From the IMG/VR virus record IMGVR_UViG_3300045988_169817: a DNA stretch of 50,908 bases. One strand, 5' to 3'. How positions within the stretch are numbered: position 1 is the stretch's first letter; each line of letters opens with the position of its first letter. Below are positions 2,764 to 48,970 of this stretch, piece after piece. Source of the DNA: a virus. Made by a program: the position numbers and the translations under genes. The notes beneath the pieces were generated by a model. It saw only the letters and a program-made list of their open reading frames with translations. It was not told where the DNA came from and did not search any database.

Positions 2764-2961
2764 ATGGAAATAAATGAACAAGAGAATACCCAAGAGGTAC
2801 AGCAAGAGAATTTGCTTGATGGCTCTCAGTCAGTTCAAGCAATGCAAGAAGGAAATGAACTGCCAATTGCTGTTCAATTAGTTCAGCCTCAAGCTGCTTT
2901 AGATGAAATAGCGGAGCTTGAGAAGAAATATCGTGAAACTATAGAACGGGAGAATAAATGA
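2764..2961 (+). CDS. Hypothetical acidic and Gln-rich small protein (65 aa)
   Basis: ATG-initiated ORF that overlaps the next ORF start by 4 nt (ATGA). Confidence 0.4.
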   Translation: MEINEQENTQEVQQENLLDGSQSVQAMQEGNELPIAVQLVQPQAALDEIAELEKKYRETIERENK

Positions 2962-3434
2962 GCAATTTTGTTTTAGATTACAGCAAAAAGCAGACTTTGC
3001 AAATATCAAATGATGCTTTTTGCTTTTTGTATTATGGCGAAGAGCCATTAGACGAAGACAATTTGGAAGAAGCCAATGAGGTATCTGAAATGTTTTCCAA
3101 TAATTTTTATATAGAAGATGATTGGAAAGCAGTTGATGACTCAGACCTTATAGAATGTACTTTTGTTCCGTATGTTGAAGACCAAGCCGATTATGATGAA
3201 TATGAGGACCTTACTAAATATATTCAGCAGCAAATAAAATGGCTTGATGCAAACCATATTAGAGTGTGGTGGTTTAATAACCAAACTGGAGCGAGAGAAT
3301 TACGCGGTGATTTTAAGGTTTATACCAATAAATATGGCCTTAAGTGTTTTCATACAGGCAATCAAGATGAGGATTTTGCGACAGGAAAAACGAGCTTGTA
3401 TTTTTTGAAGAATTTCAAGAAGCGCATAGCTTAA
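2958..3434 (+). CDS. Hypothetical, strongly acidic protein (158 aa)
   Basis: Translationally coupled ORF with many D/E runs (DEDNLEEANE, DDSD, EDQADYDEYED). Confidence 0.55.
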   Translation: MSNFVLDYSKKQTLQISNDAFCFLYYGEEPLDEDNLEEANEVSEMFSNNFYIEDDWKAVDDSDLIECTFVPYVEDQADYDEYEDLTKYIQQQIKWLDANHIRVWWFNNQTGARELRGDFKVYTNKYGLKCFHTGNQDEDFATGKTSLYFLKNFKKRIA

Positions 3435-3456
3435 CAAGTGAACGAGAGAAATATAA

Positions 3457-3488
3457 GGCAGACTACAGAAAAGTAGTCTGCCTTTTTT
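3457..3488. terminator. Convergent (bidirectional) terminator hairpin
   Basis: GGCAGACTAC-agaaaa-GTAGTCTGCC followed by TTTTTT. It sits between the convergent genes ending at 3434 and 3487. Confidence 0.8.
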
Positions 3489-4209
3489 ACATTAAGCTTT
3501 CATCTTCTTCTATAACGAGAGAATAGCCGACTCCTCGTAGGGTTTCTATAGTTACTCGGCTATCCATTTTAAGCATATCTCGCAACATACACATATGGAC
3601 GTCTAAGCTACGTTTATTAAAGTAGTTATCATCAGTCCATACTTGTTGCATAAGTATTTTCCTAGGTAATATTTCGTTTTTATAGGCACATAGTAAAGCA
3701 AGAACTTGGCTTTGTTTACGATTAAGCCGTGTTTTTACACTGCCTATAGTAAGAAATTTATCTACTGTATTAAACAAGTAATCGCCTATCTCATAAGATG
3801 GCTCTATATTTCTTACTCGCACACCACATCTTTTCAAAACGGCTTTTATTCTTCTTATAAGCTCCTCAATGTTATATGGCCTTATAACGTAATCATCTGC
3901 ACCTTCATCAAATGCTTCAATAACATACTCATATCGGGCCTTGTCTGATACCATTATTACCGGTATTTTATCATTTGATTTGCGCAAAAATTTTAATGGC
4001 TTTAGCATCATAGAGGCATCTGTTGTTTTATAATGGCTTAATATGCATAAGTCATAATTCTTTTCTCTGATTTTGATTAGTATATCATTCTCAGTTGAGG
4101 TTATTACTTGAAAGCCGTTATACACCAAATAATCTACCAGGATTCTACAGTCTTCATCTTGATAGATTAAAATTCTTGGCAATGCTAATTTAGTGTTATT
4201 ACTTTTCAT
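3487..4209 (-). CDS. OmpR/PhoB-family response regulator (receiver plus winged-helix domain) with a degenerate phosphorylation site
   Basis: The receiver aligns by eye to PhoB (RILIYQDED, IPVIMVS, GADDYVIRPY, RRIKAVLKR). The C-terminus has the trans_reg_C pattern (LDVHMCMLRDML...TLRGVGYSL). Ser58 occupies the phospho-acceptor Asp position (YDLCILS), and Arg replaces the conserved Lys. Confidence 0.85.
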   Translation of the reverse strand: MKSNNTKLALPRILIYQDEDCRILVDYLVYNGFQVITSTENDILIKIREKNYDLCILSHYKTTDASMMLKPLKFLRKSNDKIPVIMVSDKARYEYVIEAFDEGADDYVIRPYNIEELIRRIKAVLKRCGVRVRNIEPSYEIGDYLFNTVDKFLTIGSVKTRLNRKQSQVLALLCAYKNEILPRKILMQQVWTDDNYFNKRSLDVHMCMLRDMLKMDSRVTIETLRGVGYSLVIEEDESLM

Positions 4210-5084
4210 ACTATTTCTTTAATCTTGTTTTGCAAATCGTTATATAGAACTTCATACCAAAATGGATTAAGTCTTAACAGGTCAAAGTATGAGTATACGC
4301 CTTTTTGGTATATTAAAGAAACATATTTAAGCTCTTTGTCCGCTCTTTTTTTAAGATGCTCATGATAGAACTTTATGGACTGGTCTACATTTACCAAGAA
4401 TGGCGATTTATGCTCTATAAGAACTTTCTGCTCTGTATTTTGAGCAAAATAATATGGAATATTAGGCATTGCCCAAAAAGTTAATCCAGCACCGTATTCC
4501 TCACTTGCTTTATATAAAAAGCCAGGGCATGGACGAATTGAGTCAGGATATAAGCTTTTACATATTCTTAACCTACGTGGAATAAAAGGATTAAGTAAAG
4601 TAGTTAATCGCTTGTTTATATAAGTTGAGTATTTATCAACCATTCTTGTGTGCTCTTTAACAAGTGATGAAACTAACAGCTTAATCCTTTCATTTCCTAT
4701 AGGGTCACTCAGGCGTATATATTCTTGCCTGAAAGCTTCACGCTGAATACGTATTCTATCTTCTTTAAGCCGTTGAGACTTTTTCCTTTTAGCTTCTACG
4801 CCAGCCATTGCGGCTCTGCGCTGTCCCTCAGGTCCAAACAGTCTTACACCTTGACAATTATTTGAACCTACGCCTACCCATGGCATTTTATCCCCATATC
4901 TAGCTTCAATCTCTCTGTTTTCTTGCTCTTCTTCAGATAATTCAACATGTTCTTCTTCTAAGGTAATTTTTTCAATTGCCTCAGATTGAGCCTCTTGAAT
5001 ATCCTCATCATCGCTTTTAATTTCATCGAGAAATTCAAAGAGTTCCTTTTCGGTTAGGTCTCCATATTGCTTAATATCTTCCAT
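4206..5084 (-). CDS. Hypothetical protein (292 aa) with an acidic N-terminus
   Basis: ATG-initiated ORF overlapping its neighbours by 4 and 14 nt. No motif recognised. Confidence 0.6.
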   Translation of the reverse strand: MEDIKQYGDLTEKELFEFLDEIKSDDEDIQEAQSEAIEKITLEEEHVELSEEEQENREIEARYGDKMPWVGVGSNNCQGVRLFGPEGQRRAAMAGVEAKRKKSQRLKEDRIRIQREAFRQEYIRLSDPIGNERIKLLVSSLVKEHTRMVDKYSTYINKRLTTLLNPFIPRRLRICKSLYPDSIRPCPGFLYKASEEYGAGLTFWAMPNIPYYFAQNTEQKVLIEHKSPFLVNVDQSIKFYHEHLKKRADKELKYVSLIYQKGVYSYFDLLRLNPFWYEVLYNDLQNKIKEIV

Positions 5085-5580: not shown

Positions 5581-6261
5581 TTATAAGTTTTTAAGTTGTT
5601 GTCTATAATACTTTTCTTGCATATCGAAATGTCTCTTATATATATGCAAATCATGAGCAAAATGGTAATAAGTGCCTATTGGCACACCGAGCTCATCTGC
5701 GACTAATTGTTGAAGCTTTGTCCAACAATACTGGTCATTGCAAAAGCCATAAACCAAATCATTGCTTCGCATAGTTACACACATATCAAGAGTTCCTATT
5801 TGAGGCTTAATATCAAATCCGACTGATAGCGTACAAGGTGTATCATACTTATAGTCATCTTTTTCTTTGCCGTCAAATATAGTAAACCAAGCTTGACGAG
5901 TATCTTTATTCTCTTTAAGCTGTTCAATGCACTTTGCCAATTGACCATTGCGAGTCCATTGCCAACCGTAATTAGAATTGACAATGTTATCTCCACCGTG
6001 CATTTTATTCCACGTAGGAGCATGTTTTTTAATTTCAGCTACACTCCTATCTCCAGACATATACCAGGCATATTCGTACTCTGCGTATCGTTCACTAAAT
6101 TTACGCCATTCTGTTGTTATGGTGCGTTGCTGAGGATTAAGTAAATAAAAACCAACATTGTAAACAGCTTTTGTTCCAACGTTAGTATTTACTCCTTGGC
6201 CCATTATAAAACCATATAAATCCTCAAAGGCTTCTGTTGCATTTTTATAAGCTATATTCAT
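5581..6261 (-). CDS. ThyA-family pyrimidine hydroxymethylase, predicted to be a deoxycytidylate (dCMP) hydroxymethylase
   Basis: Resembles T4 gp42 by eye in NSNYGW, the catalytic Cys context DTPCT, MRSNDLVYGFCNDQYCW and HIYKRHF. Asp occupies the position equivalent to T4 Asp179 and E. coli ThyA Asn177. The ORF-track start at 6276 is TTG, and the first ATG is at 6261. Confidence 0.7.
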   Translation of the reverse strand: MNIAYKNATEAFEDLYGFIMGQGVNTNVGTKAVYNVGFYLLNPQQRTITTEWRKFSERYAEYEYAWYMSGDRSVAEIKKHAPTWNKMHGGDNIVNSNYGWQWTRNGQLAKCIEQLKENKDTRQAWFTIFDGKEKDDYKYDTPCTLSVGFDIKPQIGTLDMCVTMRSNDLVYGFCNDQYCWTKLQQLVADELGVPIGTYYHFAHDLHIYKRHFDMQEKYYRQQLKNL

Positions 6262-6268
6262 AACTATT

Positions 6269-6400
6269 TTACCCAAATTTGTTTAACGCTCCAATCATAT
6301 CTTTGCCGAGATATTTTAAAAGTCTCAGCCTGTTTGTAGGTATTAAAGTATCTTAGTAATTTACCTACTGAGTCAAATACTCCATATTGCATTTTTCCCA
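6269..6400 (-). CDS. Possible small ORF (43 aa, MGKMQYGVFDS...)
   Basis: It fills the gap between 6403 and 6261 and starts 3 nt after the upstream stop codon. It is below the ORF-track length cutoff. Confidence 0.3.
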
Positions 6401-7602: not shown

Positions 7603-7689
7603 TATTCTCGCGCGCTCTAGAGCACGCCTATCATTCCATTATTATTCAATCATTCATGTACTTAAAGCGCGATATTGCGCGCGAGAATA
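7603..7689. promoter_or_regulatory. GC-rich inverted repeat carrying two GCGAGAAT boxes, with an internal GCTCTAGAGC palindrome
   Basis: tATTCTCGCGCGC (7603-7615) and GCGCGCGAGAATa (7677-7689) are reverse complements. They lie in the spacer between the dUTPase stop and the 7586 start. Confidence 0.55.
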
Positions 7690-8202: not shown

Positions 8203-8580
8203 CTACACTATTTTAACAAGTTCCTTAGCTGCTGTTTCTACGGCTCTAGCAAGTCTATGTTCAACTTCTGGACTTATAAGGCTGTAAACTCCTTCTTTTT
8301 CAAAAGCGTCAGCCATGATAGCTCCAATTTTTGAAAGCTTAGGATTAGAAGCGTTAATGCCATGCTTATCCATAAGTTCTTCGTTGTACTCATACTTAAT
8401 ACCTCTGCCATTTTCTACAGGAACGAGCTTAGCTATTTCTGCATGAGTATTTGACTTTCTGCTCGGAACAGTGATAATAATCTCCTGATTGGTTGCCCTG
8501 CACATATCTGTGCACATTTCCATTACTTCATTGAAGTTGCGCTTAAACTCTCTTGGAGTTACTGAAATTAAACTTTTCAT
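8203..8580 (-). CDS. Hypothetical protein (125 aa)
   Basis: ATG-initiated ORF. The N-terminus has a faint Phd/YefM-like pattern, which is not enough for a call. Confidence 0.5.
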   Translation of the reverse strand: MKSLISVTPREFKRNFNEVMEMCTDMCRATNQEIIITVPSRKSNTHAEIAKLVPVENGRGIKYEYNEELMDKHGINASNPKLSKIGAIMADAFEKEGVYSLISPEVEHRLARAVETAAKELVKIV

Positions 8581-9441: not shown

Positions 9442-10068
9442 TTATTGTTTAATAAAATTTATGTTGTCAGATGAATAATACACAGTATTTGTGCTTTTTA
9501 CTCTATAAATAGCATTGTTAGATAATTTGCATTCTATAATACAGTGTGAAGTACAATAGGCATTGTCACATGCTTCTACTGTGGCATTACCGCGTGCTTT
9601 CACTGTGGCATTATCGCATGCTTCTACTGTGGCATTACCCCATGCTTCTACTGTGACATTGTCCCATGCTTTCACTGTGGCATTGTCCCATGCTTTCACT
9701 GTGGCATTACCGCGTGCTTCTACTGTGGCATTGTCGCATGCTTTCACTGTGGCATTACCGCATGCTTTCACTGTGGCATTACCGCGTGCTTCTACTGTGG
9801 CATTGTCGCACAAAAGAAACCCAGACCGAACCGAAATGTTGATAAATATATCATTTTGAGCAAAATCCTCACGATATTGCATTAGCAAGTTAGAAGTAAT
9901 AACTTTGTTGTTAAAGTACCAATTAAAATTGTCTTTAATAACGCTGCATAATTCTTGAAGTGTTTCAGATTTATACGCTCGGCTGTATTGCTCAGTACAT
10001 GCTTTAGCTGCTTTAGCACGATTAAGAATTTCAGCTTTTATATCTTCAAAATCTGTTTTCTGTGTCAT
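9442..10068 (-). CDS. Repeat protein with about 10 tandem 8-residue units [GD]NATV[EK]A[CRW], a predicted beta-solenoid
   Basis: The repeats are visible in the translation and as a 24-nt DNA periodicity. The ORF-track start at 10092 is TTG, and the first ATG is at 10068. Confidence 0.65.
   Translation of the reverse strand: MTQKTDFEDIKAEILNRAKAAKACTEQYSRAYKSETLQELCSVIKDNFNWYFNNKVITSNLLMQYREDFAQNDIFINISVRSGFLLCDNATVEARGNATVKACGNATVKACDNATVEARGNATVKAWDNATVKAWDNVTVEAWGNATVEACDNATVKARGNATVEACDNAYCTSHCIIECKLSNNAIYRVKSTNTVYYSSDNINFIKQ
9561..9810. repeat. Tandem 24-nt coding repeat, about 10 copies
   Basis: The unit gcttctactgtggcattaccgcgt recurs with few substitutions. Confidence 0.9.
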
Positions 10069-10351
10069 ACCATTTTGAGTTATTAAGTTCAAGGTAATTA
10101 TTTAATGCGCCCATATAAGCAACTGCATCAAGCAAGTTATCTTCTTTGTGGCTATATGCCTCACGTGATAGCTTAAGAGCAATCATTGCTCTATACATTC
10201 CAGCAGTTGTTATTTGCTGGTCTTTAGGCGACATCAAGTTATAAAGAGCTGCTGCTCTTTCCATTGATGCCTGGAATGGCCCATATTGACGCTCTTTTTC
10301 CTCTGAGCGTTCATTTACAATCTTGTTTGCTTGTTCTAAGATGTTAGCCAT
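10046..10351 (-). CDS. Hypothetical small helical protein (101 aa)
   Basis: ATG-initiated ORF. The ERxxxYG motif near the N-terminus is reminiscent of small phage nucleotide-associated helical proteins. This is recollection only. Confidence 0.5.
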   Translation of the reverse strand: MANILEQANKIVNERSEEKERQYGPFQASMERAAALYNLMSPKDQQITTAGMYRAMIALKLSREAYSHKEDNLLDAVAYMGALNNYLELNNSKWYDTENRF

Positions 10352-11324: not shown

Positions 11325-11509
11325 ATTTCTACTTTTGTATAATTATTAAAATCACAATAAAGATATTTAGGAATAGGAGTTATAGCACCATTTATATATT
11401 TACATGTAGTTGACCATGTATTTTTCATAACTACCTCATATATTACATTGCGATAACAGAATATATCTCCAACCTTTAACCTTGATATTTTAATATACTT
11501 TTCGCGCAT
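11321..11509 (-). CDS. Hypothetical small protein (62 aa)
   Basis: ATG-initiated ORF with a 4-nt overlap. Confidence 0.4.
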   Translation of the reverse strand: MREKYIKISRLKVGDIFCYRNVIYEVVMKNTWSTTCKYINGAITPIPKYLYCDFNNYTKVEI

Positions 11510-11807
11510 GACTATCAGCTATAAATCCGTTTGCTACTCTCAGTTCATCCATAAACATAACAGAATTGTAATGCTTAGGAAATTCTTTTATCACCTTAAA
11601 GCTTGCTGTTTTATCTTTCACAAAGCTATTGCCTACAGGTTCTACATATCCAAGTTTTACAAACTTATAAAGATATGTGGTTTCTGAGTTTCTGCCTGGT
11701 TCTTTACCAAGCAGAATTTCTTTTGAACTTACTACTTTGCCAACATTATCGTTAACAAATTTTACCATTTCCGGAAATACCGGAGCTTGCTTTCCATTAC
11801 GTCCCAT
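11490..11807 (-). CDS. Hypothetical protein (105 aa)
   Basis: The ORF-track start at 11834 is TTG. The ATG at 11807 follows the SNF2 stop codon (11809-11811) directly. Confidence 0.5.
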   Translation of the reverse strand: MGRNGKQAPVFPEMVKFVNDNVGKVVSSKEILLGKEPGRNSETTYLYKFVKLGYVEPVGNSFVKDKTASFKVIKEFPKHYNSVMFMDELRVANGFIADSHARKVY

Positions 11808-11808
11808 A

Positions 11809-13248
11809 TTACATAAATTTTTTATATTTGTCAATTTTTGCTTTTATGCTATCCATTAAGGCATTTTGCTTTTTATCTTTTGCTTTAAGTGCTCTGATTA
11901 CATCTTCATCATGAGTGCCTTGCAATATCAAGTGATTTATAACAACATGATTTTGCTGTCCTTGTCGATATAATCGAGCATTAAACTGCTGATATAATTC
12001 AAGACTCCATGTTTGCCCAAACCAAACTATTATGCTACCTCCTGCCTGAAGATTAAGTCCATGACCTGCTGATGCTGGATGTGCCAACATAACTTGTATT
12101 TTGCCTGCATTCCAGCCTTCAATATCTTTATTGTTTTTAAGCTCTCTTGGTTTATATTTTTTAAGATACTCAACAATTCTATCTCTATCAAACTGATAGG
12201 TCCATGCTACAAGCACAGATTGGCCATTTGCATCTTCGATTATCTCCTTAAGAGCTTCAAGCTTAATATCATGAATTGGAAACACATTTCTTTCTTCATC
12301 ATATATAGCCCCATTAGCAAATTGAAGTAATTTATTTGAAAGGGCAGCAGCATTGACTACATTTACTTCCACAGGCTTTTCAACAAATACTGAATTGCCA
12401 TTTTCGTCTTCTTGCTCAACAGTTTCAGTAGCACCTATTAAGTCAAGCACTTTATTCTTTTCAAAGTCATCATATTGCTTCTTTAGAGCTTCAGGCATTC
12501 TAAGCTTTATATAGTTATCTGTCCTAAACGGCATTTCAAGATAATCATCGGCTTTCATGCTTATGCAAATATCCTCTATTTTCTTATGTATTAGATATTC
12601 TGAGTCACTCATCAAATCGTATGAATATACGACATGACCATTTGTTTGGCCTGGCCGAAAATACCTTTCTCTATATCTGGATATTGTCTTTTCAAGGCGC
12701 TCGCCTCTATCCATAAGATATATTTGAGGCCACAAATCAATAAGTCCATTTGGAGCGGGTGTACCAGTTAGTCCTACTAACCTTTTAAGATAAGGTCTTG
12801 CGCCGCGTAATGCCTTAAAACGCTCTGATTTATAAGACTTAAAACTGCTAAGCTCATCGACTACTACCATATCAAAAGGTAATTTGCCTCCGCCATACAA
12901 AGCACAAAGCCATACAACATTATCTCTTGATATGATATAAATATCAGCTTTTGTTTCCATAACGGCTGCTATTCGCTGTTTAGCAGTACCTATAATCTTA
13001 GAAAAGCGCAAATGCTTTGTATGCTCCCATTTCTCTGCTTCTTCTTGCCAAACTGACTCAGCCACTCGTTTTGGAGCTATAACTAATACAGAATTAACTT
13101 CACAATAATCAAACATCAAATAATTTATAGCAGTAAGAGTTGATATGGTTTTGCCAAGGCCCATATCTACAAATACACCGCAAAATGGATGCTCGATTAT
13201 ATGCTGCACGCAAGCTAATTGGTATTTATGTAAATCTGTTTCTTTCAT
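11809..13248 (-). CDS. SNF2/Rad54-family (superfamily 2) helicase
   Basis: Motif I DMGLGKT, motif II VVVDELS, and C-terminal helicase motifs QGQQNHV. Confidence 0.85.
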   Translation of the reverse strand: MKETDLHKYQLACVQHIIEHPFCGVFVDMGLGKTISTLTAINYLMFDYCEVNSVLVIAPKRVAESVWQEEAEKWEHTKHLRFSKIIGTAKQRIAAVMETKADIYIISRDNVVWLCALYGGGKLPFDMVVVDELSSFKSYKSERFKALRGARPYLKRLVGLTGTPAPNGLIDLWPQIYLMDRGERLEKTISRYRERYFRPGQTNGHVVYSYDLMSDSEYLIHKKIEDICISMKADDYLEMPFRTDNYIKLRMPEALKKQYDDFEKNKVLDLIGATETVEQEDENGNSVFVEKPVEVNVVNAAALSNKLLQFANGAIYDEERNVFPIHDIKLEALKEIIEDANGQSVLVAWTYQFDRDRIVEYLKKYKPRELKNNKDIEGWNAGKIQVMLAHPASAGHGLNLQAGGSIIVWFGQTWSLELYQQFNARLYRQGQQNHVVINHLILQGTHDEDVIRALKAKDKKQNALMDSIKAKIDKYKKFM

Positions 13249-13316: not shown

Positions 13317-13610
13317 TTACTTATCATAAATTATACTATCTATAAATTGTTCAACACCTTTTATCGTATCTATTACTTCAACTCTAAAACCCAAAGCTCT
13401 AAGCTTATTGTGCATATATGCCTGTATGCGTTTAGGCTTTCGTCCAGTTGTTTTTAATTCCACAAAAACTATTTTATGGCCTGGAAATAAACACATTCTA
13501 TCTGGTAAGCCTATAAGTTGGTCGCACAGCAGTTTTATGCACATACCACCATTTAATTTGACTAGTTCTACTAGCTTTCGCTCTATAACTTTCTCACTAG
13601 CTATTTCCAT
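13317..13610 (-). CDS. VRR-NUC domain nuclease
   Basis: PD...(E)xK core: PDRMCLF...VFVELK. The size and the position beside the helicase are typical. Confidence 0.7.
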   Translation of the reverse strand: MEIASEKVIERKLVELVKLNGGMCIKLLCDQLIGLPDRMCLFPGHKIVFVELKTTGRKPKRIQAYMHNKLRALGFRVEVIDTIKGVEQFIDSIIYDK

Positions 13611-13797
13611 ACCTTTTCATATAAATATCATATTCTATTGTATCGATATTAAAAATTACTTTAATAACCTTAAAATATTGGCCTGAGAATTTAACTAACA
13701 TATCTATTTTTGGTATGCTTTCTATATTCTTTGAGCATAACAACGTTGCTTCTTTTATACTCTGACCTGAAAGTTGTTTATAAAAATTTGCTATCAT
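13597..13797 (-). CDS. Hypothetical small protein (66 aa)
   Basis: ATG-initiated ORF in an operon-like arrangement. Confidence 0.4.
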   Translation of the reverse strand: MIANFYKQLSGQSIKEATLLCSKNIESIPKIDMLVKFSGQYFKVIKVIFNIDTIEYDIYMKRYGNS

Positions 13798-18373: not shown

Positions 18374-18399
18374 TACATTTCACTTATGTATTATAATAG

Positions 18400-18480
18400 G
18401 AGTATAGGCGGGACTCGAACCCGCATAACAGGCACACAAACCAATGGCGCTCTGCGGTTTTACCATTAAACTACTATACT
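18400..18480 (-). tRNA. tRNA-like gene (81 nt) with canonical acceptor, D and T arms but a non-canonical, over-long anticodon region. Identity is undetermined.
   Basis: On the minus strand: AGTATAG/CTATACT acceptor, GTTT-AATGGTA-AAAC D arm, GCGGG-TTCGAGT-CCCGC T arm. There are 32 nt between the D and T arms instead of about 23, and no 5-bp/7-nt anticodon arm could be folded by hand. Confidence 0.6.
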
Positions 18481-18499: not shown

Positions 18500-19057
18500 T
18501 TACATCAGCACGTCGTCCCATTCATTCTCGCCTCCGAAGTCCTCTTCAGCAGTAGAACCACCGGCCAACATCTCACCGTCTTCGAGCTTCTGAAGATTGT
18601 TCAATCCAGCTGCAATGCCTTTGGATGAAACATTGAAGGCATAGAAGTTGATTGATGCACGGCCATAACAACCACTGTAGAACTCCTCTTTCTCCATGAT
18701 AGGATTGAGGTCTTTGTCCACGATGCTTGGCCTGCGCTGGCTATTGGCATTGATGAAGTACATGCCTTCGAATGCTGGGTCGTCGCCACGCTCATCGTCG
18801 CCATCACGCAGAGGCAACTTGAGGTTTGAAGGTATCTTGCCATTCTTGTCTGCGAGCTTGGCTTTACCTGCCTGTTTAGCTGCCTCGATAGCCTTGTTAA
18901 TCTTATCAAGGGTCTTTGCATCATCTTTCGGAATAAGAATGCAGATATTGTACTTAGGAGTATCGCCCTCATTCATAGCTGTGGGCTCGAACACGTTTAC
19001 ATAGCAAAATCTTACTTTGCCAGTTACAACCTTGGTTGAATTTACTTGATTACTCAT
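18500..19057 (-). CDS. DUF2815-type phage single-stranded DNA-binding protein
   Basis: N-terminal VVTGKVRFCYVNVFEP pattern, acidic C-terminal tail EEDFGGENEWDDVLM, and a position next to the DUF2800-type nuclease. Confidence 0.65.
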   Translation of the reverse strand: MSNQVNSTKVVTGKVRFCYVNVFEPTAMNEGDTPKYNICILIPKDDAKTLDKINKAIEAAKQAGKAKLADKNGKIPSNLKLPLRDGDDERGDDPAFEGMYFINANSQRRPSIVDKDLNPIMEKEEFYSGCYGRASINFYAFNVSSKGIAAGLNNLQKLEDGEMLAGGSTAEEDFGGENEWDDVLM

Positions 19058-21576: not shown

Positions 21577-21969
21577 TTACCGCTTTATGAAGTATTTTGC
21601 ACACAGCCATATAATTACTAAGGCTATGGCGGTTATCAGGTATTCACCAATATTAATTTTTATCTTTTGCCATTTAGTAAGCTGAGCTTCTACAGGGTAT
21701 GCAACTTGAATTGTATCAACTTTTTCTCGCCAGAGAGTATCATGCTTTTCTATGTATTTATACAAGTATTTATATTTACTGAGATACACGGTATCGCCTT
21801 TGTGCTCTACATATATTGAATCTCTATGATATATGCTATCAATTTTGGTCTGAGATAAGTAAGTAGTATCTCTTTTCGTTGTTTCCACTGGCACATATTG
21901 AATTGACTTACAGCTATATAATATAGTGGCTAAAAATATAAGTGTAATTATTCTCGCTAATTCTCGCAT
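21577..21969 (-). CDS. Lipoprotein with a C-terminal transmembrane helix, a unimolecular-spanin-like lysis protein
   Basis: N-terminal signal plus lipobox-like LYSC, a C-terminal TM segment ITAIALVIIWLCAKYF, and a position adjacent to the endolysin and holin. Confidence 0.5.
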   Translation of the reverse strand: MRELARIITLIFLATILYSCKSIQYVPVETTKRDTTYLSQTKIDSIYHRDSIYVEHKGDTVYLSKYKYLYKYIEKHDTLWREKVDTIQVAYPVEAQLTKWQKIKINIGEYLITAIALVIIWLCAKYFIKR

Positions 21970-22013: not shown

Positions 22014-22048
22014 CCATTCTCGCACATAAGAAATTATTGCGAGAATGG
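22014..22048. terminator. Hairpin built from two inverted GCGAGAAT boxes. It is terminator-like on the minus strand.
   Basis: CCATTCTCGCA-13 nt-TGCGAGAATGG. On the minus strand the stem is followed by TTTTTAT. Confidence 0.55.

Positions 22049-25426: not shown

Positions 25427-25454
<28 letters not shown>
24222..25454 (-). CDS. Tail-associated SGNH/GDSL-family hydrolase, a putative polysaccharide esterase
   Basis: Block I ILCFGNSFTQDS and a C-terminal DTGH (DxxH) motif. It is the last gene of the tail-fibre block. Confidence 0.6.
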
Positions 25455-27028
<1,574 letters not shown>

Positions 27029-34523: not shown

Positions 34524-35297
34524 TTATTTCCTTTTATGCCGTTTAACACTCTTGCTTTCTGCTTCTAATTGCTGTTTTATATTATCAACAGCATTATAGA
34601 ATTGAAGTACTGTCATCTTTTTAGCATCCATGCTTGTTTTTTGAGCTATCAAAAGACAAGTACTTTCAAATTGCTTATCATATTTTATCTCAACAGACTC
34701 ACTTCCTATATATGATTTTGGAGAATGCATATTAAGCATTATCATATCTATAGTTTCTATCTGTTCAGAGTTATCTGTGTCATTTATCATAGAGTCCAAC
34801 ACAAGAAGTGTTCTTTGCTTTAACTTATCGTATGCATCTTTTTCCTTTGGATTTACAAAATCTCCTGGAAAGTACATTTCAAGTTCGGTGGTTACTTTTT
34901 TTTTAAGCCAAGTCAAAAAGTCTATAATCTTTGAATGCTTTATTTCTTTAAGCCTGGCCAATATATTTTTAAGTCCATCGTCTGACAAATCATTAACTTC
35001 TTCGCCATCTATGCTATGGATAAGAGCTGCAAAAGCTAAGTACCTCGGTGAAATTTCATTGTTCACCATATACATATTTTGCCTCATGTTTTGCAGTTCT
35101 TGCAAAGCTTTTTTGGCATTATTGCTTTTAATGAATTTAGCAACACGGGTTATATGGGCATCAATATCATCTGCATCTGAGCCAATTCCAGAGTCTATAA
35201 GCAAATACTTATTGTACTTCTGAAAATTTACAATAGGCATTTCATCTATGCTGTCATATACCCGTACGACTTTTTTATTTACTATCAGGTTTTTCAT
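34524..35297 (-). CDS. Hypothetical protein upstream of the tape measure, a possible tail assembly chaperone
   Basis: Position only. Confidence 0.35.
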   Translation of the reverse strand: MKNLIVNKKVVRVYDSIDEMPIVNFQKYNKYLLIDSGIGSDADDIDAHITRVAKFIKSNNAKKALQELQNMRQNMYMVNNEISPRYLAFAALIHSIDGEEVNDLSDDGLKNILARLKEIKHSKIIDFLTWLKKKVTTELEMYFPGDFVNPKEKDAYDKLKQRTLLVLDSMINDTDNSEQIETIDMIMLNMHSPKSYIGSESVEIKYDKQFESTCLLIAQKTSMDAKKMTVLQFYNAVDNIKQQLEAESKSVKRHKRK

Positions 35298-35566
35298 ATT
35301 AAAATTCGCGTTATAGGGGTTGATATAATAGGAATAAGTATAATACTCATCTCATTAAAGAAAATAGCGAGAATGATAGCGAGAATAAGCGACGTCCAAA
35401 AGCTTAAGCAAAAGTCACAATCGAATAATTGAGAAATAAGCTTAGGAGCTCTGGTAATTATCTCATCGCGCACACCGAGTTTTCCAATTAGCAAAATAGC
35501 AAATGCTGCTGCTAAGGCTATATATATTAAAGCCGAAAGCATTGTTATAAAATATACCGTTGACAT
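35294..35566 (-). CDS. Small integral membrane protein (DUF1360-like CDFCLSFW motif)
   Basis: Three hydrophobic helices. The motif assignment is from memory. Confidence 0.45.
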   Translation of the reverse strand: MSTVYFITMLSALIYIALAAAFAILLIGKLGVRDEIITRAPKLISQLFDCDFCLSFWTSLILAIILAIFFNEMSIILIPIISTPITRILI

Positions 35567-43438: not shown

Positions 43439-43530
43439 ATATTCTCGCATTATGTCCATTCAAGGCTTATGATTTAATCATTTATATATAATTAGAAGCC
43501 TAGAAATTGCGAGAATAATGCGAGAATATG
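43439..43530. promoter_or_regulatory. 13-bp inverted repeat carrying GCGAGAAT boxes (three boxes in total)
   Basis: atattctcgcatt (43439-43451) and aatgcgagaatat (43518-43530) are reverse complements. An extra box lies at 43509-43516, 11 bp from the next. Confidence 0.6.
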
Positions 43531-43539
43531 AATTTTAAC

Positions 43540-46263
43540 TCAATTTCTCAATGATATCTTCTTCCTTCCAGCTTTTCTAAGCCTCATTTCTACTACTCCA
43601 GTTAATGCATCTGGTGCATCATCATGAGCAGCCCTTCGCTTATTATCTTTACGATAAGTTGTAATAGCATTATAGAATTCACGCCATTTTTTATCCCAAT
43701 TTTCTGGAAACGCTACATCTGAGTTAACAAGAGCTGAATTTGAAAAAATACGAGCAGCTTTATTTTTTGTCTGTGTAAAAGTATTTATGGCTGTTTTGAA
43801 ATTATGCAAAGTAGCTCTTGTAATACGCTTTACATTTCTAGCAAACTGCCTACCACCATTATTGGACTCTATCAGACATTCTGTTATACTATTTTCTGTG
43901 AGCATTTTAGCCAACATTACTTCAGTTTTTTCCATGGGCAGTTGTGTGTATAGCACATCAATTATATATAGCATTTCTGGAGTATTTATAAAGCAAATTG
44001 CACATAAATAATCAGAGCCAGTATCAGCTGTATCAACGTAACACCATCTTTGATTAGCTTTAGAGCCTGATGGCAATTCTATATTTTGATATGTCCTAAA
44101 CTCGTGATACATAAGGCCCTCAGTAGGAATTGGATTTTGCATATATTGGGTCTCAAATACTACCGGGTTAATCTCTCGTAGTTTATATAGCTCCTCAAGA
44201 TTGTGCTTCATTGGCCAAAGAGCATGTTCTTCTCCTGTCTCAGGGTCTGTTTGTATAACTGGAAGTGATAAAACAGTCCATGTATCTGGCTCTATCTCTT
44301 GCAAATAGCCACAGAGGTCATGCTCATGTAATCTTTGCATTATAATAATGATAGGCGTTCTACGCGAGTTAACACGGTTACGTATTGTATTTTCGAAGCG
44401 TTGGTTTATGCGCTCTCGTATAAGGTCGGATGCTGCATCATCGGCTTTCAGGGGGTCATCGATTACAATTGCGCCTTGAAATATATTGGTTTTAGCATCT
44501 ATCATTTTAAGCATTTCATTCGTGTGGTCATCGAAAACAAATATATCATTGCCTCCATCCATTTTATCTATTTCTTCATCTACCGCTCCAGCACCAAAGC
44601 CTGTGACCTGACCTTGTGTTGACACTGCATAGAGTTCTCCTCCTGCTTTAGTTTTCCATCTCTTAGCCGAACCTTTCTCGGATGCAAGAGCTGAATTAGG
44701 AAAGAGTGTTTTATATAATTCTTCACTCATTATATTGCGTACAGTATCTGAATTGTCATTCACAAGTATATCTGAATACGACAAATGCAGAAATCTACTC
44801 CGCGGGTTCAAGGCGAAGGCCCATGAGATAAACGACTTAATAACTAATTCTGTATTGTGTGATACGAGCCCATTGGCTATAAAATTTTTATCGCCAGATA
44901 CTTCAATATGAACTAATTCATGCTTTCCTACTTCTTCTATACTAACAATTTCATCAGGATAGAAATCTTCAGCCCAATATCTCGTAAGGTTATCAGGAAA
45001 AATTTCCACTAATTCTCTAAATGTATCTTCTGACATATTCCTATTTGGCCCAACTGATTTATACCCTAAATCAAAGTGTATCATTTTGTAAAGGCCTTCA
45101 TTCTTTATTATAGAATACGGGTATGTGCATGTACGTTCTATTTTAGAAGGCTGTAAAATGTATTCTTTTGCTTTATCTGCTTTTCCATAAAAATCCAAAT
45201 GCGGATATAATTTTTGAGAATACCTTCTTGATATTGCAACATTCCATATACCAGCTTTTTCATTTTCATAAAATCCTAAAGTTGATGGGATTTTCATAGT
45301 AGATAACAGATATTGGATATCCTCAGCAAGTCCTTTGTTTGCTAGGCCTATAGACAACTGGCCATTCTTTTTTATAGTACCATCTGTCGCTATCACTATT
45401 CCTAAAAACACATATTTTTGTCGCATAGAAGTACTAAATATTCCTAATGGGATTCTTTTAGTATAAGAGTCATTTCCAACTAATCTATGCTTTATTAAAA
45501 TGTTATCTATTACGCCTTTAGTTCCGCCTAATATGGTATATTGACAATCTGCGGTACAAGAATAATGCTTGACCTCACCTCCGAGTTCATTAACAGCCTT
45601 TATAACAGCATTTACCGCTAATTTATCTATGTTAGTAAATCCTAATTTACCAGATTTTGTACAACATCCGTCAAACAGCACCATTGATATTAGTATAACC
45701 TCCGCGTCTGATAATGTTTCGGCGCCGTCCAACTCTTTTTTTAGTGCAAATATCCTATCTCCAATTTTAAGCCTATTAGATTTTACATACCCGAACGGTG
45801 TCCTCCAAGGATGGTCAATACTGCATACAACTGACCGACCTGACCTCATAGTAATTTCATAGCAGTCTTTATATGCCGGCTCAGTAGCAATAACGCTATT
45901 AACAACTGCTCTACCATCTTTGAATGATAGCACTTTATCTCCTGGCAGTATATCAGCTATTTTTTTTCGCTCACCTGTAGCAAGCGTAATAAGGGTATCT
46001 TTACTAACGCATTTCCCGTATCTGGGAGCGATATTGATAATCAATCTGGTAATTTTACCATCTACAACATCTTGTAACACTTCGAACATTTTCTTATGGT
46101 GCTCTGCTACTATGAATGAGCGTTTATATTGGCATTTAAACATTAGTTTAGTATACTTTTCAAATGACGTAAGAGCCTCAAGGCGTAACATTTCTACAGG
46201 ATTTACAGTTCCGGGCTTTGTGGCGTCTAATGCTGTTTCTTGCATTTCTTTAAGTGACTTCAT
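43540..46263 (-). CDS. terL: Terminase large subunit interrupted by an intein (907 aa precursor, 521 aa after splicing)
   Basis: The Walker A motif APRYGK|TELV is reconstituted by removing residues 85-470. The C-terminal nuclease half has a typical length. Confidence 0.8.
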   Translation of the reverse strand: MKSLKEMQETALDATKPGTVNPVEMLRLEALTSFEKYTKLMFKCQYKRSFIVAEHHKKMFEVLQDVVDGKITRLIINIAPRYGKCVSKDTLITLATGERKKIADILPGDKVLSFKDGRAVVNSVIATEPAYKDCYEITMRSGRSVVCSIDHPWRTPFGYVKSNRLKIGDRIFALKKELDGAETLSDAEVILISMVLFDGCCTKSGKLGFTNIDKLAVNAVIKAVNELGGEVKHYSCTADCQYTILGGTKGVIDNILIKHRLVGNDSYTKRIPLGIFSTSMRQKYVFLGIVIATDGTIKKNGQLSIGLANKGLAEDIQYLLSTMKIPSTLGFYENEKAGIWNVAISRRYSQKLYPHLDFYGKADKAKEYILQPSKIERTCTYPYSIIKNEGLYKMIHFDLGYKSVGPNRNMSEDTFRELVEIFPDNLTRYWAEDFYPDEIVSIEEVGKHELVHIEVSGDKNFIANGLVSHNTELVIKSFISWAFALNPRSRFLHLSYSDILVNDNSDTVRNIMSEELYKTLFPNSALASEKGSAKRWKTKAGGELYAVSTQGQVTGFGAGAVDEEIDKMDGGNDIFVFDDHTNEMLKMIDAKTNIFQGAIVIDDPLKADDAASDLIRERINQRFENTIRNRVNSRRTPIIIIMQRLHEHDLCGYLQEIEPDTWTVLSLPVIQTDPETGEEHALWPMKHNLEELYKLREINPVVFETQYMQNPIPTEGLMYHEFRTYQNIELPSGSKANQRWCYVDTADTGSDYLCAICFINTPEMLYIIDVLYTQLPMEKTEVMLAKMLTENSITECLIESNNGGRQFARNVKRITRATLHNFKTAINTFTQTKNKAARIFSNSALVNSDVAFPENWDKKWREFYNAITTYRKDNKRRAAHDDAPDALTGVVEMRLRKAGRKKISLRN
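44854..46011 (-). mobile_element. Intein (386 aa) with a LAGLIDADG homing-endonuclease domain
   Basis: N-terminal CVSKDTLI, block B CSIDHPW, two LAGLIDADG-like motifs (LISMVLFDGC and FLGIVIATDGT), and a C-terminal VSHN followed by Thr. Confidence 0.8.
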
Positions 46264-46273
46264 TGCTATATTT

Positions 46274-47062
46274 TTACTTTATTAAGTTTTCACGTATAAT
46301 CAGATATGCTTCACGACTTACAGGCACATTAGGAATAATGCCTGTTTGGAGTTGTTGCTGCTCAGGTAGATTAAGCTGCATTTGACCTTTTCCAAACACA
46401 CGGTCCCAAAGCTTCTCAATTGTTTCTATATTGCCAAGTTTTGTATCTTCTTGCAAGCGCTTTATAACTGTTTTGATAACGATTGGTATCTTTTTATTGT
46501 TATACAGAGCCGCAAGTTGTGCCTCATTGCACGTTAACAAACAAGCCAATAAATTAGCCGTGTCCTGCTTTGTAAGTTGGACACTTAAATTGATATTAAG
46601 GCTAGTAAGAAGCTTTGTTATTTCAGGCCTTGATGCTCCTTGTAACTGAAGTGCTGAGCGTATAGCTGATGAATATGAACCTCTGCCCGAGTCATGGCGC
46701 TCTGCTAACTCAGTTGCTTTAAGTGGCTCTACAGTCTGAGCCTCAAGTGCCTCAATAGCCTCAACTCGTTTTTGCTGCTCTGCAATACGTTTGGCTTGAA
46801 ACTCAGTTTGGCCATCTGGTATTTCTTCCAAGCCAAGTTCTTCTGCTAACGATCGGCGTTTTTCTTGTTTAGCTTGAAGGTTTTTAAGCTTCTGCTTTTC
46901 AAGATACTTAATACGAGCCAATTCCTTTGCATCGTATTTTGATTTAATGCGCGTGGCCTCTTGTTCTACGAGTTTGGATGTGTCTGGATTAGACATTCCA
47001 GGAACTATTGGCCTGTTTGGCAATATATCTGCTAATTTCTGTGCTATTTTATCTGTTTTCAT
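46274..47062 (-). CDS. Putative terminase small subunit (262 aa)
   Basis: Position immediately upstream of terL only. Confidence 0.35.
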   Translation of the reverse strand: MKTDKIAQKLADILPNRPIVPGMSNPDTSKLVEQEATRIKSKYDAKELARIKYLEKQKLKNLQAKQEKRRSLAEELGLEEIPDGQTEFQAKRIAEQQKRVEAIEALEAQTVEPLKATELAERHDSGRGSYSSAIRSALQLQGASRPEITKLLTSLNINLSVQLTKQDTANLLACLLTCNEAQLAALYNNKKIPIVIKTVIKRLQEDTKLGNIETIEKLWDRVFGKGQMQLNLPEQQQLQTGIIPNVPVSREAYLIIRENLIK

Positions 47063-47864
47063 ATTGGCTATTATATTTTTGTTGTTTATTTGATATGGTT
47101 TTACTTTTTTCTTCTAATGCCATATCTTTCTTTATTTGGTTTTGTAATCGCCTATACTCTGTTGCTTTTCTAAGGTCTGGCTCTATAGTTATTATATCAT
47201 CTGCATTATTAAATCTCCATACAGAACCATAGGCTATTCTCCGTTGGCCATTGCAACACATGTATATGGCGCTTGGGTTGACTTTTGTCGGTGTTGAATT
47301 TGCGTATTCTCTTATAGAATCCCATCTTTTATAAAATTTATAAGTATTTTCTGCTATCTCAGTATACTGATATACGGCTCTATGTGGATAACTACGTATA
47401 GTATCTGTTCCTGATTTACGTATTGTATCTGGTATTCCCCATTTTGCTGCATATCCTGGTATGACGGCTTTTTCTGCTGCACATTTATTTAAGCTATTTA
47501 TTATGTTGTGGCCGTAGGGAGCATAAGCTATATATTCATCTATCAATTCATACATTCTTAGGTATACGCCCATCAAGTCTAGGTTCATAGGAATTTCTTC
47601 TGTGGACACCGTTATATATTTGCTTTCAGTTATGGCTTTTGCCAAGTCAGGATTGTTTTTACTTGGCCAAGCTGCATTATGAAATGCATCATATATAAGC
47701 CTCTCTATTTTGTTTTTAACAGTAAAAGTTCTTCTTTCTCCTGTCCAGCCTATGTATACTTTATTATCATACTCAAACTCAAGTATGAAAAATGCACTTG
47801 TAGACTGTAAATTGGCGTTTTCTTGTAAATCTACCAAATACTTGTATTTACCTATGCGTATCAT
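47049..47864 (-). CDS. GIY-YIG homing-endonuclease-like protein with C-terminal DNA-binding repeats
   Basis: FILEFEYDNKVYIGWT, EEIP...YGHNI resembles I-TevI (EEIP...NGYNI). The C-terminal pattern AIYMCCNGQRRIAYGSVWRF is NUMOD-like. 47891 is TTG, and the first ATG is at 47864. Confidence 0.55.
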   Translation of the reverse strand: MIRIGKYKYLVDLQENANLQSTSAFFILEFEYDNKVYIGWTGERRTFTVKNKIERLIYDAFHNAAWPSKNNPDLAKAITESKYITVSTEEIPMNLDLMGVYLRMYELIDEYIAYAPYGHNIINSLNKCAAEKAVIPGYAAKWGIPDTIRKSGTDTIRSYPHRAVYQYTEIAENTYKFYKRWDSIREYANSTPTKVNPSAIYMCCNGQRRIAYGSVWRFNNADDIITIEPDLRKATEYRRLQNQIKKDMALEEKSKTISNKQQKYNSQYENR

Positions 47865-47888
47865 AAATATAGTTTTTTTATTACTTTG

Positions 47889-47896
47889 CAAATATA
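47889..47896 (-). promoter_or_regulatory. Bacteroides-type -7 box TATATTTG
   Basis: It lies 25 nt upstream of the ATG at 47864, and a GCGAGAAT box (47920-47927) sits about 25 nt further upstream. Confidence 0.55.
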
Positions 47897-48383
47897 CTAA
47901 TAAAAATTGATAGGCGAAAATTCTCGCAAAATAAAAATTACACAGAAATGAGAAATTAACATTTTTTTATACTAGTGAATTATTAACCTTTTAATATGAT
48001 ATTTCACAGGTATTTAGGCATATATCTTAGTTAGTGAATAGAAAATGAGGCTTTGGTTTCTTGTGTTTCTACCTCACAAAATAAAGCTAATTGAAAATCA
48101 ATATTTTATCAAATTTAATTAGTGAATGGAAATTGAGTGGCGCAGAAACAATCATCTCTAACTCTTCTACGAAGTCTTATACTGTGATATGTGAATAGAT
48201 AAGCCTATCTATATCACAATTCACTATCTCAAATCTATTTTATCTCTTTTATATATTTATTGTTTATGTTGTTTATCGATATCTAATTTATTGAAAATCA
48301 ATCATTTATTGAGAAACTTCACTCTGATTTCGCATGTTTATTTTGTTTCTTTGAAAATTATTTCTGAGCATCTATTCTTTATT

Positions 48384-48780
48384 GCGAGAATGGGATTTTG
48401 TCAATTCCTTATTAAGTCTAGGGGCCTAGATTGATATTTGCGAGAATGTATGCGAGAATGAGAATTTATGAGCCTCTGGGCCTTGCTCATACTCATATAT
48501 GATTTGAATCCCAATTTGCGAGAATGATTTGAACCCCCAATTTGCGAGAATGGTTTGAACCCCAATTTGCGAGAATGATTTGAAGCCAAAAAATTTTTCT
48601 GCCTATGGACATGGCTCTATATACTATATATGATTTGAATCCCAATTTGCGAGAATGAGAATTTATGAGCCTCTGGGCCTTGCTCATACTTATATATGAT
48701 TTGAATCCCAATTTGCGAGAATGATTTGAAGCCAAAAAATTTTTCTGCCTATGGACATGGCTCTATATACTATATATAAG
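48384..48780. repeat. Array of nine same-orientation TGCGAGAAT boxes embedded in two larger duplications
   Basis: Boxes at 48384, 48440, 48452, 48518, 48544, 48569, 48649 and 48715. The block at 48452-48531 recurs at 48649-48728 with one mismatch. The block at 48569-48632 recurs at 48715-48778. Confidence 0.9.
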
Positions 48781-48881: not shown

Positions 48882-48970
48882 ATTCGTTAATTATAGCTTG
48901 ATTCATTAATTATGGTTTAATTCATTAATTATGGTTTAATTTGTTAATTATTGGTTTGATTCGTTAAGAA
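48882..48970. repeat. Tandem repeat of about 19 nt (about 4.5 copies, attcattaattatggttta)
   Basis: Units at 48882, 48901, 48920, 48939 and 48959. They are flanked by an imperfect direct repeat tcgttaaNaagcattaagNct. Confidence 0.85.

Follow-up and report, generated by a model that had tools for sequence, protein, structure and literature searches.

What use might a phage make of a response regulator that can no longer be phosphorylated? The question is raised by a viral stretch of DNA of 50,908 nucleotides (IMG/VR record IMGVR_UViG_3300045988_169817, hereafter the window, meaning the whole stretch that was analysed), in which the open reading frame (ORF) at 3487..4209 on the minus strand encodes, from an ATG start, a 240-amino-acid (aa) protein of the OmpR/PhoB type, hereafter the regulator. 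An earlier inspection of the letters alone, the sequence-only reading, had recognised a receiver domain followed by a winged-helix output domain, had noticed that the phospho-acceptor aspartate was missing, and had proposed that the protein binds paired copies of a short word, GCGAGAAT, in the phage genome. The regulator is a pseudo-receiver, or "atypical" OmpR/PhoB regulator, and not a canonical response regulator. By analogy with its bacterial counterparts it is probably a switch for phage genes that is permanently on, and we assign a probability of about one half to the reading that it is a phosphorylation-independent transcription factor with the phage's GCGAGAAT boxes as its targets.

Domains, fold and lost active site of the regulator

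The regulator belongs to the OmpR/PhoB family by both of its domains and by its fold. It matches the Pfam family Trans_reg_C at 63.3 bits (cutoff 26.2; residues 160-231) and Response_reg (PF00072) at 35.3 bits, which passes the curated cutoff of 30.2 (residues 24-122). PHROG 731 is matched end to end (E 3.2e-33; residues 12-231 against positions 3-224 of a profile of 227), and a sequence search of the Protein Data Bank (PDB) returned 157 OmpR/PhoB-type chains, the best being PrrA (E 9e-20); the N-terminal half alone aligns in phmmer to the receiver of Escherichia coli PhoB (1zes/1b00) with an E-value of 6e-12. The AlphaFold2 model, with a mean predicted local distance difference test score (pLDDT) of 87.7, contains a pseudo-receiver domain with the (beta-alpha)5 fold at aa 12-128 (3826..4176, minus strand), and comparison of this half with the solved receivers of PmrA, ArlR, BfmR and PhoB in Foldseek gives target-normalised TM-scores of 0.81-0.90 and root-mean-square deviations of 1.8-2.8 Å. 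The winged-helix DNA-binding domain, delimited by Trans_reg_C and the model, occupies aa 137-233 (3511..3801, minus strand); the expected beta-sheet, helices and wing are present, with a recognition helix at about aa 196-213 (NKRSLDVHMCMLRDML). Over the full length, Foldseek matches include DNA-bound KdpE, PmrA, PhoP, CosR and VbrR. The two-domain architecture first proposed is thus borne out by the Pfam domains, the PDB sequence matches and the confident model.

A pseudo-receiver has been defined as a computationally recognised receiver without at least one of the five conserved active-site residues (PMC12632262). Three of the five catalytic residues are gone in the regulator. Ser58 (codon AGC, 4036..4038, minus strand) stands opposite Asp53, the phospho-acceptor of PhoB, and Arg110 (codon 3880..3882, minus strand) opposite the conserved Lys105 of PhoB, both in phmmer and in the alignment to PrrA of Mycobacterium tuberculosis. 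Gln17 (codon 4159..4161, minus strand) takes the place of PhoB Glu9, the first residue of the acidic metal-binding pair, in the phmmer alignments; in the model, strand beta1 ends at residue 16. The second acidic residue is kept as Asp18 (PhoB Asp10), and so is the "Y-T coupling" pair, with Ser88 opposite PhoB Thr83 and Tyr107 opposite Tyr102. In the AlphaFold2 model the canonical active-site loops of a receiver hold Ser58, which immediately follows strand beta3 (54-57), and Arg110, which immediately follows beta5 (106-109). The substitutions of Asp by Ser and of Lys by Arg had both been named in the sequence-only reading, which had also proposed a HMMER search with Response_reg and Trans_reg_C and an alignment as a check. 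Both domains pass, the codon of Ser58 was read directly, and no Asp occupies the acceptor position. The third substitution, at the first acidic metal ligand, had been overlooked.

A complete phosphorylation site, comprising the acidic pair, the acceptor Asp, the Thr/Ser and the Lys, is found neither in the regulator nor in its family. Because this defining active site was tested and is absent, the protein cannot be classed with canonical response regulators; and since Gln17, Ser58 and Arg110 replace catalytic and sensing residues, it cannot be the output of a histidine kinase. PhoB, KdpE, PmrA and PrrA, which are among its best sequence and structure matches, share its two-domain architecture and folds, but such canonical regulators possess the full Asp/Asp-Asp/Thr/Lys site and a partner kinase, whereas the phage protein has lost three of the five residues and no kinase was found for it. 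As first stated for the window, no histidine kinase was detected in PHROG and Pfam scans of essentially all its ORFs of at least 100 aa, nor was one found among the called genes of seven related loci; judged from the sequence, any host kinase would find no acceptor residue on the regulator.

The altered site is a stable property of the close family. The combination Q17-D18-S58-S88-Y107-R110 is present in 78 of 78 full-length genes from IMG/VR contigs, and the ratio of nonsynonymous to synonymous substitution rates (dN/dS) is about 0.07 over 888 pairs of regulator genes from such contigs, which indicates purifying selection and thus a functional gene. Among 200 cluster representatives at least 66% identical to the regulator, Gln17, Asp18 and Arg110 are invariant, and position 58 is Ser in 96, Gly in 104 and Asp in none. 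Since a whole sister clade has Gly here instead of Ser, an alternative phosphorylation at Ser58 is unlikely. The close family also shares cysteines: Cys21, Cys55 and Cys174 are invariant, and Cys128, at the inter-domain linker, and Cys207, in the recognition helix, occur in almost all members, an arrangement that recalls the redox-switched regulators RitR and HP1021.

A phage lineage of pseudo-receivers and its gene neighbourhood

An exhaustive HMMER search of 1.84 billion representatives yielded 57 proteins at E <=1e-30. Within the 25 nearest representatives (50% clustering, 35-51% identical), Asp58 is kept in 21 and the Lys in 10, the acidic pair is lost in 23, and all five catalytic residues are found in only 2. 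Only when identity has fallen to about 30-35% do canonical OmpR-type regulators of Bacteroidota/Flavobacteriia with a complete site turn up, and 185,579 bacterial and archaeal genomes, each representing a species, contained no relative above 35% when scanned. Likewise, tblastn against 50,697 GenBank phage records gave nothing above about 33% identity, and many of its matches were bacterial contigs filed as phage. The genomic contexts of distant homologues were obtained by exact-sequence look-ups for P0121, P0122, P0123, P0126, P0132, P0139 and P0146; IMG/VR context searches gave no match for P0121 and, for P0122 and P0123, returned only the window's own lineage through the common peptide FDEGADDY, and a profile search of a 5.8-billion-protein collection was dominated by the abundant close lineage. 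All seven distant homologues lie on related phage contigs, in a module with a family-A polymerase, a VapE primase-helicase, an SNF2 helicase and either a dUTPase or a thymidylate synthase. On these sequence comparisons, the lineage is restricted to phages and made of pseudo-receivers, the clade of the window being its most degenerate branch. Its genes always close the replication and nucleotide-metabolism operon of their phages.

The earlier remark that an orphan regulator working without phosphorylation is an unusual gene for a phage needs tempering. That the regulator is of this kind follows from its sequence and matches a known bacterial class (PMC12632262); its rarity in phages was overstated, given the precedents in PHROG 731 and BFVD. 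The latter contains phage proteins annotated as response regulators or OmpR/PhoB-type DNA-binding domains, including a CtrA-like one, but these matches are weak or cover one of the two domains, and PHROG 731 is a phage family of unknown function.

The phages of this lineage are siphophages of about 50 kb and are common in human-gut data, with at least 80 IMG/VR loci, many of them on contigs of about 50-52 kb, and with hundreds of regulator protein clusters at 90% identity, one of which holds 2,863 member sequences. The nearest isolates are the Bacteroides fragilis phages BF503P4, BF503P1 and BF486P2 and their relatives (52-54 kb; the BF503P4 portal is 75% identical), so that the host is very probably a Bacteroides species. 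Nearly all genes of the window belong to a minus-strand series that starts at about 48 kb and ends at 3.5 kb. The large terminase, portal, head and tail proteins and tape measure are followed by lysis genes (amidase), then by genes for an exonuclease, a Gp2.5-like single-stranded DNA-binding protein (SSB), a tRNA-like gene, a family-A DNA polymerase, a VapE-type primase-helicase and an SNF2 helicase, and finally by those for a nucleotide kinase, a methyltransferase, a dUTPase, a thymidylate-synthase-like enzyme, a 292-aa protein of unknown function and the regulator. The regulator gene is thus the last of a long minus-strand block, at the end of a replication and nucleotide-metabolism operon, and a bidirectional intrinsic terminator hairpin with a 12-bp stem (3455..3484) separates it from a convergent plus-strand gene (2958-3434). 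No integrase, repressor, RNA polymerase or sigma factor was detected among the ORFs of the window.

Directly upstream, the 292-aa ORF (4206..5084, minus strand) overlaps the start of the regulator gene with its stop codon (ATGA). Alignment confirmed homologues in all seven distant contexts; in six of these an ORF of 255-301 aa overlaps the regulator start, while in L344 the homologue is found about 3 kb further upstream. The 292-aa protein has an acidic N-terminal part and no family match, and AlphaFold2, working from a shallow alignment, reached a pLDDT of only 45. This constant neighbour, which directly precedes the regulator gene and usually overlaps it, is one of several observations favouring control by a signal other than Asp phosphorylation, such as Ser/Thr phosphorylation, cysteine oxidation, or a ligand or partner, for example the 292-aa protein itself. 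The retained Ser88 and Tyr107 and the conserved cysteines point the same way, and bacterial models exist for both kinds of modification: GlnR is under Ser/Thr phosphorylation control (PMC12632262), and HP1021 of Helicobacter pylori and RitR of streptococci are OmpR-like orphans without a working acceptor Asp that are controlled by cysteine oxidation (PMC9449129, PMC8266642). RitR entries (5u8k/5vfa) are among the fold matches of the regulator, but redox control is a property of HP1021 and RitR, which serve here as models only for alternative explanations. Against such a signal, Gly58 in half of the close family means that Ser58 is not a required phosphorylation site, Cys128 is not conserved in the wider family, and the 292-aa protein also occurs in BF503P4, which has no regulator. 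We consider non-Asp signalling decidedly improbable.

The GCGAGAAT boxes and their relation to the regulator

The most likely targets of the regulator would lie in the phage genome itself, where one word stands out. The exact 8-mer GCGAGAAT occurs 21 times, against 1.1-1.3 copies expected, and none of 100 shuffles reaches 21. Twenty of the copies are intergenic or at gene ends, and the exception, at 18524 inside the SSB gene, fits the chance expectation. Variants with one mismatch are no more frequent than chance predicts (33 against 32 expected), and degenerate second half-sites beside the single boxes were rejected on this ground.

Eight of the 21 boxes are grouped into four close direct pairs, whose periods are 10, 11, 12 and 12 bp; the pairs at 43509/43520 and 48440/48452, quoted in the sequence-only reading, are both present. 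The 11-bp pair (43509..43527) occupies the gap between the large terminase and a head gene, near a single box at 43441-43448. A 12-bp pair (35367..35386) lies about 70 nucleotides (nt) upstream of a virion-protein gene (34524-35297), and the 10-bp pair (21950..21967), in the opposite orientation, is downstream of the lysis genes. Two inverted boxes (22016/22039; 22016..22046) immediately behind the amidase gene make up a terminator-like hairpin with a T run after it. A second inverted pair, ATTCTCGCGCG ... CGCGCGAGAAT, stands at the head of the operon in which the regulator gene comes last; its boxes are 77 bp apart (7604/7681; 7604..7688), and it carries GC-rich extensions. Its arms are invariant in phages whose regulators are 42-65% identical, and we regard it as a candidate autoregulatory site. 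The 7681 box abuts a GC hairpin (GCGCGCaatatcGCGC followed by TTT) after the dUTPase gene, and the 7604 box abuts the palindrome GCTCTAGAGC. Eight boxes in a single orientation (48384..48722, plus strand) make up an array of 25/26-bp units with 146/197-bp duplications, between divergent gene blocks. Beyond this box repeat region (48384-48780) come four 19-bp repeats (ATTCRTTAATTAT...) at 48882-48956, and the whole complex may be an origin or serve control. At the corresponding place, BF503P4, L337 and L342 carry quite different repeats.

Promoters of Bacteroides carry a -7 element of the type TAnnTTTG. A single box (47920..47927, minus strand) ends 23 nt upstream of such an element, TATATTTG, before the gene at 47049-47891. 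Other boxes lie at least 62 nt from an element of this type or have none nearby, and this inconsistent distance rules out the box as a fixed promoter element.

The association between regulator and boxes extends to related phages. L339, L337, L341 and L344/L345, whose regulators are 65%, 51%, 47% and 42% identical, respectively, retain the box or the core CGAGAAT in homologous intergenic positions. In L337, 11 of the 12 box matches are intergenic and include an array of 5 x 33 bp, and L345/L344 have the same 11-bp box pair after the terminase. BF503P4, which is syntenic with the window gene for gene, has no regulator gene (no tblastn match), unrelated repeats in the equivalent intergenic region, and only 3 GCGAGAAT boxes, the number expected by chance. 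Moreover, no recognisable sequence-specific DNA-binding domain was found in the other window proteins tested, leaving the regulator as the only one with such a domain. A 262-aa protein encoded before the terminase was considered as a box-reading sigma factor, its positional analogue in PDS1 being so annotated, and was rejected because it neither resembles PDS1 gp43 nor matches a sigma-factor family in Pfam.

More divergent phages also count in favour of the link. The P0123 and P0139 phages, whose recognition helices are more divergent, have no intergenic boxes in 12 kb of each, and one of them carries a different array of eight 29-bp units. The locus L342 (ERZ16268129 scaffold_6618), with the recognition helix KSLDIYIFHLRKAL, has at least eight tandem 29-bp units (CGTCGCTATAGGGGTAGACGCCTCCCAAG) at 11876-12112 and no GCGAGAAT in 12 kb; regulator and repeat sequence may thus change together.

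Several observations weigh against the boxes being targets of the regulator. Co-occurrence is a single contrast of gain or loss, that with BF503P4, and four small ORFs (8203-8580, 10046-10351, 11490-11834 and 13597-13797) share the presence/absence pattern of the regulator. OmpR/PhoB-family regulators bind direct repeats with a period of about 10-11 bp, and mixed orientations and spacings such as these fit poorly with simple head-to-tail dimer binding: only the eight boxes of the close direct pairs are so arranged, with a variable period, and the others are inverted or single. Two box pairs resemble terminator hairpins, the position of the boxes relative to promoter-like TAnnTTTG elements is inconsistent, and one-mismatch copies at chance level make the word unusually strict for a transcription-factor site. 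Furthermore, the box is unchanged in the P0126 phage despite four substitutions in the recognition helix of its regulator. A reciprocal IMG/VR scan for paired boxes returned mostly the window's lineage among the matches listed; 27 unrelated loci among them mostly had only the matched pair, as chance predicts, and no regulator homologue within the short stretches, so that the scan counts neither for nor against the link. The earlier proposal that the regulator binds the boxes is thus favoured by their co-occurrence and by the four direct pairs at 10-12 bp, and is weakened by the single or inverted state of most boxes and by the one evolutionary contrast. On these sequence data, the odds that the regulator acts on the boxes are roughly even.

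Two other explanations draw on the same observations. The regulator could instead be directed at the host, binding Bacteroides promoters to reprogramme surface structures, stress responses or nucleotide supply while the boxes are read by something else. Phages often carry host-derived regulators, the closest cellular relatives of this one are the ordinary OmpR-type regulators of Bacteroidota/Flavobacteriia, and the box stays constant while recognition-helix residues vary. Yet the scan of cellular genomes revealed no close host homologue to mimic, and regulator gene and boxes are present or absent together; a host-directed role appears rather unlikely.

Alternatively, the regulator might bind the array at 48384..48722 as iterons and, in place of transcription, set the initiation or timing of replication, a role with a precedent in HP1021, which acts at the H. 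pylori origin (PMC9449129). The regulator gene closes the replication and nucleotide-metabolism module, in which no dedicated origin-binding protein was recognised; same-orientation arrays of box-carrying 25-33-bp units occur both in the window and in L337, and the array sequence differs where the regulator is divergent (L342) or missing (BF503P4). However, 13 boxes lie outside the array, at the borders of structural and lysis modules, and BF503P4 has the same replisome genes without a regulator; we consider origin control unlikely.

Further features of the window were noted in passing. The thymidylate-synthase-like gene (5581-6276, minus strand) shares 60% identity with one that is annotated in BF503P4 as deoxycytidylate 5-hydroxymethyltransferase. 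With a dUTPase, a nucleotide kinase and a methyltransferase encoded nearby, it hints at phage DNA with modified bases, which, if present, would affect any protein that reads the boxes. The large terminase gene (43540-46263, minus strand) encodes 907 aa, to which the BF503P4 terminase aligns contiguously, at aa 3-84 and 471-907. The insertion of about 386 aa starts with Cys (GKC|VSKDTLITL) and ends in ...GLVSHN|T, and thus bears the signature of an intein with an insert the size of a homing endonuclease. A tRNA-like gene with a four-base anticodon (ccat) was detected by ARAGORN between the SSB and DNA polymerase genes (18399-18480, minus strand). In the tail or host-recognition module, about 19 ACT triplets at 25910-25961 encode poly-Ser (AGT on the coding strand) within a 533-aa ORF (25427-27028). 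Finally, the G+C content of positions 1-2000 is 44.7%, whereas the remainder of the window has about 35%, and the plus-strand gene at 800-1924 encodes a 374-aa protein 46-50% identical to BF503P4 and L337 gene products, with no family match.

A regulator without an acceptor Asp: precedents, proposed action and significance

Phosphorylation-independent OmpR-type regulators are well established in bacteria, and in this respect the regulator represents no new principle. The nearest parallels are HP1043 (HsrA) of H. pylori and its Campylobacter jejuni orthologue CosR, orphan OmpR/PhoB-type proteins with a degenerate receiver that bind repeat motifs in promoters as phosphorylation-independent dimers, HP1043 also regulating its own expression (PMC9449129, PMC8345958, PMC5253667). 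Both were matched by the regulator in the PDB sequence search (2hqr; 8uuz/8uvx) and by fold (2hqr; 8uvk/8uvx). Like the regulator, they are orphans without a phosphorylation site; they differ in being cellular and essential housekeeping proteins, whereas the regulator is only about 22-25% identical to them, is encoded by a virus and has its putative sites on the virus genome. ChxR of Chlamydia trachomatis is likewise an atypical OmpR/PhoB protein, described as a phosphorylation-independent homodimer that binds direct repeats (PMC3960148; Hickey et al. 2011 via PMC12632262). It is bacterial and autoregulatory, has a dimer interface unusual in the subfamily, and was not seen as a direct match in the searches with the regulator. 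A different connection between the OmpR family and phages is provided by CtrA, a host regulator that controls phage promoters in Alphaproteobacteria through sites concentrated in intergenic or gap regions (PMC9437464). CtrA is encoded by the host, is phosphorylated and reports the host cell cycle, while the present regulator is the phage's own, with Asp phosphorylation impossible. A full-text literature search of incomplete coverage yielded neither a functional study of an atypical response regulator from a phage nor experimental work on the phage proteins catalogued in PHROG 731 and BFVD.

From these precedents a mode of action can be proposed. By analogy with HP1043, ChxR, GlnR and CosR, the pseudo-receiver would serve as a constitutive dimerisation module through its alpha4-beta5-alpha5 face. 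Asp105, Asp106, Arg120, Lys122 and Arg127, which we take from PhoB to be charged residues of this face, are retained. The dimer would bring two winged-helix domains onto DNA, and its activity would be set by the amount of protein, which would accumulate as the replication and nucleotide-metabolism module is expressed. Its targets would be the phage's own exact GCGAGAAT boxes, at the borders of functional modules and in the array between the divergent blocks, and their occupation could time the structural, lysis and early genes by turning them on or off, while the pair that heads the regulator's own operon might mediate feedback. The sequences show the domain identity, the lost catalytic residues, purifying selection, the restriction to a phage lineage and the co-occurrence with the boxes; that the protein forms dimers, binds DNA, has the boxes as its targets and regulates in a given direction is inferred.

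The retained dimer face and the intact receiver fold seen by AlphaFold2 and Foldseek would also suit a decoy that titrates a host histidine kinase or forms heterodimers with a host OmpR-family regulator and does not act through DNA. For a decoy, though, the winged helix would be superfluous, and it is the better conserved half of the protein (63 bits in Pfam; many residues of the recognition helix and its surroundings are invariant), so that we hold this explanation to be highly improbable.

Returning to the regulator as a transcription factor of its own phage, a more far-reaching scenario can be sketched, doubtful though it is at present. A large and abundant lineage of gut Bacteroides phages may have domesticated a two-component response regulator into a kinase-free master switch, all its phosphorylation chemistry being lost progressively. 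By reading an invariant 8-bp word scattered over the genome, in terminator hairpins, in an iteron-like array and where modules meet, the regulator would tie replication to the switch from early to late transcription. Related phages would exchange regulator and word together, as a cassette. If true, this would be the first described regulon of a virus-encoded atypical response regulator.

Gene timing in the siphophages of Bacteroides outside the crAss group is poorly understood, and most of their genes are annotated as hypothetical. In this very abundant and almost unstudied group of gut phages, the regulator offers a well-defined candidate with a sharply defined operator word. Its relatives also display, within one syntenic gene, a natural series in which the acidic pair and the Lys were lost first and the acceptor Asp afterwards, to Ser or to Gly. 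As the activation of pseudo-receivers is still called a mystery (PMC12632262), the regulator family should be useful to pseudo-receiver research as such a series.

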